From the IMG/VR virus record IMGVR_UViG_2660238524_000005: 47,221 nt of DNA; one strand, 5' to 3'. The DNA comes from a virus. Lineage: Duplodnaviria; Heunggongvirae; Uroviricota; Caudoviricetes. The position numbers were made by a program, and so were the translations under genes. This document shows, in pieces, positions 31,896 to 33,338 of this stretch (the first letter of the stretch is position 1; every line of letters begins with the position of its first letter). Below the pieces are notes generated by a model that saw only the letters and a program-made list of their open reading frames with translations, had not been told where the DNA came from and made no database searches.

Positions 31896-31921
31896 TGTAC
31901 TGACCCCAAAAAGTTGGACAG

Positions 31922-32773
31922 TTAAACACGAGGCATATAGGTCTGATTCCGATATTCAATTGGAGTCAGACCTTTTAATTTCAGGCTAATTCTTCTGCTG
32001 TTGTAGTATTCAATATATTCCGTAACAGCATCCTTCAGTTCGCTTATATTACTGAACTCATCAAGATAAAAACACTCCGACTTTAAGGTTCCAAAGAAAC
32101 ACTCCACCACAGCATTATCCAGACAATTGCCTTTTCTGGACATGCTTTGTTTAATACCATGTTCTTTAAGGATATTTTGATATCTTCTCATACGATACTG
32201 CCATCCCTGGTCAGAGTGCAGAACAGGATGCTCGTGAGGATTAAGCTTTTTGAATGCCTGATCGAGCATATTCTCAACCATGTTCATCACTGGTCTTTCC
32301 GAAAGGCTGTAAGAAATAACTTCGTTGTTGAAGAGATCTATTACTGGAGACAAATACAGCTTGCGCCCATTGACTGCAAATTCAGTAACATCGGTAACCC
32401 ACTTCTCGTTTGGCCGCGTAGCCTTGAAATCTCTTTGGAGAACATTAGGGGCGGTTTGCCCTACCTCTCCTCTGTAAGAGCGGTATCGCTTGACCTTAAT
32501 CGCTGCTTTAAGTGAGAGGGTTCCCATCAGGCGCTGAACAGCTTTATGGTTAATCTGTTTCCCTTCTCGATGAAGAGACAGCGTTACCCTACGGTATCCG
32601 TATCGGCCTCTATTCTCGTGATAAATCTCACTAATACGCTTTTTAACGTCCGCATACTTGTCAGGCTTGCTGAGAGCCTTTAGATGATAATAAAACGTAC
32701 TGCGCGGTATCTCCGCAGCCCTGAGAAGCTCATCAAGAGGATAAAACTGCCTTAGCTCGTTGAGTACTTTCAC
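31922..32773 (-). CDS. insK: IS150 OrfB (InsK, DDE transposase catalytic domain)
   Basis: 283 aa; IS3-family integrase core; overlaps orfA at AAAAAG slippery site. Confidence 0.9.
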
Positions 32774-33291
32774 TTTTTCGTGGGATGAGCTAAGGCTTTC
32801 AGCTTTTTTAGATACATAAGCCGCGTTTCAAGAAATCGAACTTGCCTTTCAAGATCCTCAATGCGTCGGTCTTTTGACAGCTCCAATGCTGATGCCGCTT
32901 TTTCTGGATCAACTGATATTGCAATGTTTCTTTTGGTGCCAATCTTGAGCGCGCGTAAACCAGCTTCTCCGCGCTCTTCATAGACCTTCAGCCACCTGGC
33001 TACAGAACCACTACCAGCAAGCATAAAGTGAGCAGCAGCCTGATTAAGGGACATGTGCTGCTCGATCACAGCTTTCACGACCTTAATACGCAACTCTGGA
33101 TCAGCACTAACGCCTTTAGGTTTGGGAATTAAACCTTTTTCTCCATGTTTTTCATAGAGGGCAACCCATGTCCTGACCTGGGTTCGGGGGACACCAAAAC
33201 GTGCCGAGATGATCCTGTAACCATCATCAGTTGTGAAGTAGTGATTCACGACTTCAAGGCGCTTTTCAAAAGGGTATTTTGGCTTTGACAT
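32770..33291 (-). CDS. insJ: IS150 OrfA (InsJ, HTH)
   Basis: 173 aa MSKPKYPFEKRLEVVNHYF... Confidence 0.9.
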   Translation of the reverse strand: MSKPKYPFEKRLEVVNHYFTTDDGYRIISARFGVPRTQVRTWVALYEKHGEKGLIPKPKGVSADPELRIKVVKAVIEQHMSLNQAAAHFMLAGSGSVARWLKVYEERGEAGLRALKIGTKRNIAISVDPEKAASALELSKDRRIEDLERQVRFLETRLMYLKKLKALAHPTKK

Positions 33292-33338
33292 ATTAGGGGC
33301 TATTCCATTTCATCGTCCAACAAAATGGGTGCAGTACA

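Follow-up and report, generated by a model that had tools for sequence, protein, structure and literature searches.

A complete IS150 element with an intact 3-bp target duplication in the tail tape-measure gene of an mEp460-like lambdoid prophage that is likely tail-defective

Introduction

Can a lambdoid prophage whose tape-measure gene has been split by an insertion sequence still build tails from its own genes? The question is raised by a 47,221-nucleotide stretch of viral DNA (IMG/VR record IMGVR_UViG_2660238524_000005; Caudoviricetes), the whole of which is termed “the window” below. A sequence-only reading, prepared without database searches, had placed an IS150 element at positions 31896-33338 inside an H-like tape-measure gene. 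The event was regarded there as relatively recent, and tails were said to be impossible to assemble unless the element excised precisely.

The tape-measure protein of phage lambda, gpH, is the natural reference. Its C-terminus is built into the tip initiator, and the tail tube polymerises along the full-length protein. Nonsense (amber) mutants in H make no tails, and in-frame deletions in H give proportionally shorter ones; the ruler work on this gene is reportedly that of Katsura and Hendrix. In the present study, the identity and boundaries of the inserted element, the gene that it interrupts, the frames that are left, the uniqueness of the insertion and the state of the remaining prophage were considered in turn.

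Results

Identity and boundaries of the inserted element

The features of the element and of its immediate flanks are as follows.

31896-33338, minus strand: complete IS150 (IS3 family), 1443 bp, with the transposase genes on the minus strand; assigned by identity to the K-12 copy
33308-33338, minus strand: left inverted repeat, at the end that precedes the transposase; read along the element, TGTACTGCACCCATTTTGTTGGACG...
31896-31926, plus strand: right inverted repeat, TGTACTGACCCCAAAAAGTTGGACAG...
31893-31895, no strand: left copy of the target-site duplication, AAC, in the sequence flanking IS150
33339-33341, no strand: right copy of the target-site duplication, AAC, in the sequence flanking IS150
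32770-33291, minus strand: orfA (insJ-type), 173 aa, a helix-turn-helix (HTH) DNA-binding protein (Pfam HTH_28, 4e-23; HTH_29)
31922-32773, minus strand: orfB frame (insK-type) with the DDE integrase-core catalytic domain (Pfam rve, 3e-29; rve_2; HTH_21)
32803-32809, minus strand: A AAA AAG programmed -1 frameshift heptamer, in the orfA frame

The reverse complement of the element was compared with the annotated feature “insertion sequence:IS150” of E. coli K-12 MG1655 (NC_000913.3, 3720633-3722075); 1443 of 1443 positions were identical, and the boundaries were equal. A chance resemblance to IS150 was rejected on the basis of this match. The element opens at window position 31896 with TGTACTGACCCC (also given as TGTACTGACCCCAAAAAGTTGGACAG) and closes at position 33338 with ...GGGTGCAGTACA (also given as ...CCAACAAAATGGGTGCAGTACA). 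Its inverted repeats are imperfect and of the TG...CA form, with TGTACTG... at both ends and a match at 22 of the first 31 positions. The AAC duplication is perfect on both sides, and a duplication of 3 bp is usual for IS150.

The orfB frame is -1 relative to orfA and is expressed as an OrfAB fusion; a -1 slip at the heptamer (read from 32809 to 32803) yields an OrfAB of 456 aa. In its sequence, its ends, its orfA/orfB layout and its A AAA AAG site, the window copy is the same as the K-12 element (insJ/insK; IS3 family, IS150 group). Location is the only difference: the K-12 copy sits in the hokA/sokA locus, whereas the window copy lies in a prophage tape-measure gene. Given this identity, the window copy would be expected to be competent for transposition. 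The sequence-only reading had thus described the element accurately in its extent, its terminal repeats, its two reading frames with their slippery motif, and its 3-bp duplication.

Within the last orfB codons, where IS150 has its right end (31939-31973), an inverted repeat of 15 pairs precedes a T-rich tract. On the plus strand, the strand of the phage late transcript, this arrangement resembles a terminator, and it is present in every IS150 copy. This hairpin and tract constitute the only terminator-like site in the IS region; a promoter/terminator scan of that region gave counts that were not above those of shuffled sequence.

The interrupted gene

The tail genes around the insertion, and the frames that are left in them, are listed here.

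29368-30092, plus strand: tail assembly chaperone genes G and T, directly preceding the tape-measure gene (as annotated by RefSeq in CP015085, which is 100% identical here)
30064-31895, plus strand: 5' part of the tape-measure gene (codons 1-610 and two bases of codon 611), TMP_2 included; 100% identical to CP015085 WLH_RS05760
33339-34584, plus strand: 3' part of the tape-measure gene (codons 611-1024 and the stop, after the second AAC), with TMP_4 and Tape_meas_lam_C
34584-40374, plus strand: downstream tail-tip genes (M-, L-, K-, I- and J-like), all open, in the same late transcription unit and 3' of the IS
30064-31989, plus strand: the truncated frame actually present, 641 aa, with its stop inside the IS
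33325-34584, plus strand: residual ORF of 419 aa (MGAVQ followed by T611...R1024), with its ATG inside the left end of IS150

When IS150 and one AAC were removed conceptually, an open frame of 1034 codons was obtained from the first in-frame TTG (30034). From the ATG at 30064 to the stop at 34584, the restored product is 1024 aa; the “about 1025 codons” given earlier correspond to these residues plus the stop. This product is identical to WP_032198006.1, a “phage tail tape measure protein” of E. coli O25b:H4 (CP015085), and is 95% identical to the tape measure of phage mEp460 (YP_007112087.1, 1021 aa). Three Pfam families were recognized above their gathering cut-offs: TMP_2 (aa 228-426; 168 bits, cut-off 30.2), TMP_4 (aa 616-693; 60.5 bits, cut-off 27) and Tape_meas_lam_C (aa 811-885; 83.7 bits, cut-off 23).

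Lambda gpH (PDB 8iyk_H) was aligned to residues 3-57 and 296-1022 of the restored protein (E=8e-47), and the portion encoded by the 3' part of the gene was aligned to the C-terminus of gpH. A 32-residue tape-measure chain (9e7m_Ha) matches residues 989-1019. The N-terminus, the TMP_2 region, the C-terminus and the place in the gene order are common to gpH and the restored protein; the latter is longer (1024 aa vs 853 aa). The order is G, T, tape measure, M, L, K, I, J, as in the identical CP015085, the near-identical CP115361 and the annotation of mEp460. By these homologies, the interrupted gene is a lambda gpH-type (H-like) tape measure, as had been proposed. The tape-measure genes of mEp460 and CP015085 are uninterrupted, whereas that of the window is broken at codon 611. 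One uninterrupted full-length frame is absent from the window and appears only after conceptual excision, so the locus is a disrupted tape-measure gene and not a functional one.

The canonical lambda slippery heptamer, GGGAAAG, was not found at the G/T junction (window 29700-29770). The T frame is entered around CCGGAAAAGTCC, and the G/T slippery site of this phage group differs from that of lambda. Since the G/T region is identical to that of CP015085, the missing GGGAAAG is no sign of a defect.

In a related phage, vB_EcoS-606R10 (ON470578.1), the tape measure is annotated as two “tail length tape-measure protein H” coding sequences. A further allele that is split or frameshifted may be present there, or the sequence may contain an error.

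The frames that are left

The 641-aa product of the truncated frame consists of 610 native residues, a threonine (the same residue as native 611) and 30 residues encoded by the IS. It is devoid of the C-terminal 414 residues, including TMP_4 and Tape_meas_lam_C. On the other side of the insertion, an in-frame ATG (33325) in the IS end opens onto residues 611-1024. The split gene could be imagined to work still, if this 419-aa C-terminal fragment, alone or together with the N-terminal fragment, were to nucleate tails, perhaps shorter ones; the short tails of the lambda H in-frame deletions are a precedent. Such a fragment would, however, be without the N-terminal 610 residues, TMP_2 among them. 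No Shine-Dalgarno-like sequence was found upstream of ATG 33325. Moreover, ca. 1.3 kb of untranslated antisense IS lies upstream of it, and translational coupling is therefore not to be expected. The ORF that starts at this ATG is probably fortuitous, and continued function of the split gene is considered exceedingly improbable.

An effect of the insertion beyond a simple knock-out was also considered, whether through short-tailed or altered particles arising from the ATG in the IS end or through a selected, reversible “grounding” of the prophage; we regard this as very improbable. If grounding were true, the prophage would be disarmed while its cargo was kept (Lom and the PADLOC candidates PDC-S31 and PDC-S42), and the prophage would infrequently be restored, either through precise excision of the element or through recombination with a sister prophage.

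The empty site and the age of the insertion

A conceptual empty site of 2400 bp was constructed from 1200 bp on each side of the element with one AAC. It was matched to both CP015085 and CP115361 as a single ungapped piece at 100%; the flanks of the insertion are thus identical to those of the empty-site alleles. The same uninterrupted target sequence is present in the DNA of phage mEp460, and a single AAC (...AAGAAAAAAACACGCGAA...) is found in all three of these alleles.

The occupied site was sought more widely. When an 800-bp query centred on the left junction was compared with 5,426 complete E. coli genomes, no place covered more than 51% of it. An exact 38-nt junction pattern gave 0 matches in GTDB species representatives, JGI metagenomes and IMG/VR. 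Given a junction with no match in these collections, a perfect duplication and an IS without a single difference from the K-12 copy, the insertion appears to be strain-specific and is probably recent. The earlier suggestion of a relatively recent event agrees with these observations, including the 100% flanks and the absence of the junction from all four collections. No relevant published case of an IS150 insertion in a prophage tape-measure gene was found in a literature search.

An insertion seen in no other genome searched might also be an artefact of assembly, in which a repeat misassembly placed an IS150 copy in the tape-measure gene. IS150 would be a plausible source of such an error. 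Many copies elsewhere in E. coli match at 100% (annotated “IS3-like element IS150 family transposase”), and by megablast the element was found in 2,865 of the 5,426 complete genomes, at a median of 2 and up to 14 places per genome. Within the window itself, no second IS150 copy or fragment was found. A misjoin, however, would not give a perfect 3-bp duplication, base-exact IS ends and seamless, 100%-identical flanks. Misassembly was rejected as the main explanation on the perfect target duplication, and we consider it scarcely credible.

The host prophage

Features at the two ends of the prophage, and those between the Q antiterminator gene and the lysis cassette, are given below.

ca. 350-396: copy of the 3' part of tRNA-Pro (left att repeat)
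835-1602: TPR-like ORF between att and int
1541-1975: small ORF between att and int
ca. 2010-2359: recombinase pseudogene fragment between att and int, transferred from the CP015085 annotation
2453-3415: DUF2971 protein between att and int, matching the PADLOC candidate defence family PDC-S31 (E=4e-22)
3553-4737, minus strand: integrase gene
15177-15608, minus strand: leftward ORF of 143 aa, with no Pfam, PHROGs or PADLOC match
15853-16716, minus strand: leftward ORF of 287 aa, matching the PADLOC candidate defence family PDC-S42 (E=1e-32) and phrog_3243 (function unknown)
45418-47221 region, minus strand: 134-aa ORF close to the prophage's right end, partially matched by PDC-S31 models
45418-47221 region, minus strand: 400-aa DUF4236 protein close to the prophage's right end, assigned to phrog_17982 (function unknown)

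A single lambdoid prophage takes up nearly the whole window. Positions 1-31895 are 100% identical to CP015085, and positions 33338-47221 are 99.74% identical to it, with all 36 differences confined to 40797-41500. Against CP115361, the right arm (33338-47221) is 99.99% identical (1 mismatch and 1 gap), and the left arm has 105 mismatches. The divergent 700 bp (40797-41500) run from the 3' end of a Lom-like gene into the 5' end of the gene for the side tail fibre. The pattern suggests a small recombination patch and mosaic relations among the three near-identical prophages.

The prophage is collinear in gene order with mEp460. With mEp460, Ayreon, phi458 and vB_EcoS-569R4, its morphogenesis module shares 98.2-98.7% identity at 99-100% query coverage; its early region is ca. 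96% identical to deposited phages of the mEp460 group over 55-67% of its length (64% for mEp460 itself). The copied 3' part of tRNA-Pro at ca. 350-396 gave a match of 88 bp at 91% to the tRNA-Pro region of CP015085. Its counterpart is the intact tRNA-Pro found after the prophage in both CP015085 and CP115361, adjoining yejM. No tRNA gene was found in the window by ARAGORN, the att repeat comprising only the 3' part of tRNA-Pro. Judged on these comparisons, the insertion has an mEp460-like lambdoid prophage as its host, integrated at tRNA-Pro.

The left att repeat lies ca. 3.1 kb from the integrase gene. The intervening DNA (window 300-3552) looks like cargo or the remnant of a second integrated element. 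The ORF pair at 15177-16716, between the Q antiterminator gene and the lysis cassette, occupies a typical moron position. At the other end, the 134-aa ORF may be a piece of a DUF2971-type gene, and the last base of the window is the first of the DUF4236 start codon.

These features bear on whether the prophage was already non-viable for other reasons, in which case the IS would have struck DNA already in decay, with neutral effect, and would not account for the defect. Decay of this kind would fit with the ca. 3 kb of foreign cargo that separates the att repeat from int, with its recombinase pseudogene fragment, and with the DinI-like gene adjoining attR, which is frameshifted in CP015085 and CP115361. 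The remainder of the prophage argues otherwise. Open ORFs were found for the integrase, the S24-type repressor, the replication protein, Q, the holin/lysozyme/spanin cassette, the terminase, the portal and the ClpP (protease)-capsid fusion. PGAP flagged no prophage gene within the window's span as a pseudogene in CP015085, and the ORFs for the integrase, S24 repressor, Q, lysis, terminase, portal and others are likewise unflagged in the annotation of the near-identical CP115361. All other prophage genes in this span are open in these relatives, and the close relation to phage mEp460 (structural module ca. 98%; early region ca. 96% over 64% of its length) also counts against general decay. Prior non-viability is accordingly thought improbable.

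Discussion

Consequence for tail assembly

The observations are best accommodated by a simple sequence of events. In an mEp460-like prophage, a resident IS150 would have jumped into the tape-measure gene at codon 611 of 1024, duplicating AAC. The 5' frame, which now stops 31 codons into the IS, would give a 641-aa product without the part that is seated in the tail-tip complex, and the 3' part would be left with only a fortuitous ATG that has no ribosome-binding site. As tail assembly is understood to start on a tip complex containing the C-terminus of the full-length tape measure, with the tube polymerising along the protein, the prophage should be unable to make tails from its own genes. Upon induction, lysis and the release of DNA-filled, tailless heads would be expected, the immunity, replication, lysis and head genes appearing intact. 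The downstream tip genes would still be transcribed if the Q-modified (antiterminated) polymerase reads through the IS. We hold this explanation as a whole (IS150 in the tape measure of an mEp460-like prophage, loss of its own tails, a recent event) with high confidence. Its functional parts, namely the loss of tail assembly in cis, the intact head and lysis functions and the continued transcription of downstream tail genes, are predictions; the tail defect in particular is predicted because lambda-type tails need full-length gpH, with its C-terminus in the tip complex.

The earlier expectation of a tail-defective prophage is sound insofar as it is drawn from lambda H. The accompanying statement that tails cannot be assembled unless the IS excises precisely is too absolute, since co-resident lambdoid prophages could provide rescue, either in trans or through recombination. 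A further reading takes up this possibility, holding the insertion to be real and of little effect on the spread of the prophage: another lambdoid prophage supplies tails or a tape measure, or recombination repairs the gene. On that reading, the cell would go on releasing infectious particles with this genome. Homologues of the tape measure are widespread (a match in 2,990 of 5,426 genomes), and the closest relative, CP015085, has three places that match the tape-measure query. ST131 isolates that carry two mEp460-like prophages have been reported (10.1101/2022.05.07.487787), and in O157 Sakai the rescue of defective prophages via co-resident lambdoid prophages has been documented (PMC2669165). 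Most of the homologues, however, are only 90-95% identical in DNA. That rescue largely offsets the insertion is judged unlikely.

Precedent and significance

The knock-out of one late gene by an IS is a familiar route to defective lambdoid prophages, and the present insertion is an ordinary event of this kind. In the O157 Sakai prophage Sp4, the nu1 gene has been hit by an IS (PMC2669165). As in the IS-disrupted lambdoid prophages of Sakai, a single essential late gene of a lambda-like prophage has been knocked out here; the IS, the gene and the host lineage differ, and many of the Sakai prophages have several defects, whereas one lesion is visible in the present case. Nothing but the particular insertion site is new; element, gene and phage group were each known before. 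The finding has no bearing on open questions of IS3-family transposition or of tail assembly.

Its value is more practical. Scoring by gene content would class the prophage as intact, although one clean lesion has hit a tail gene that is essential. It is best listed as tail-defective in cis, and its tape measure annotated as a pseudogene interrupted by IS150. Since the empty-site allele is known exactly, a simple PCR assay would make the insertion a convenient marker of the strain. Finally, the prophage would serve as a clean, single-lesion test case for trans-complementation among lambdoid prophages.
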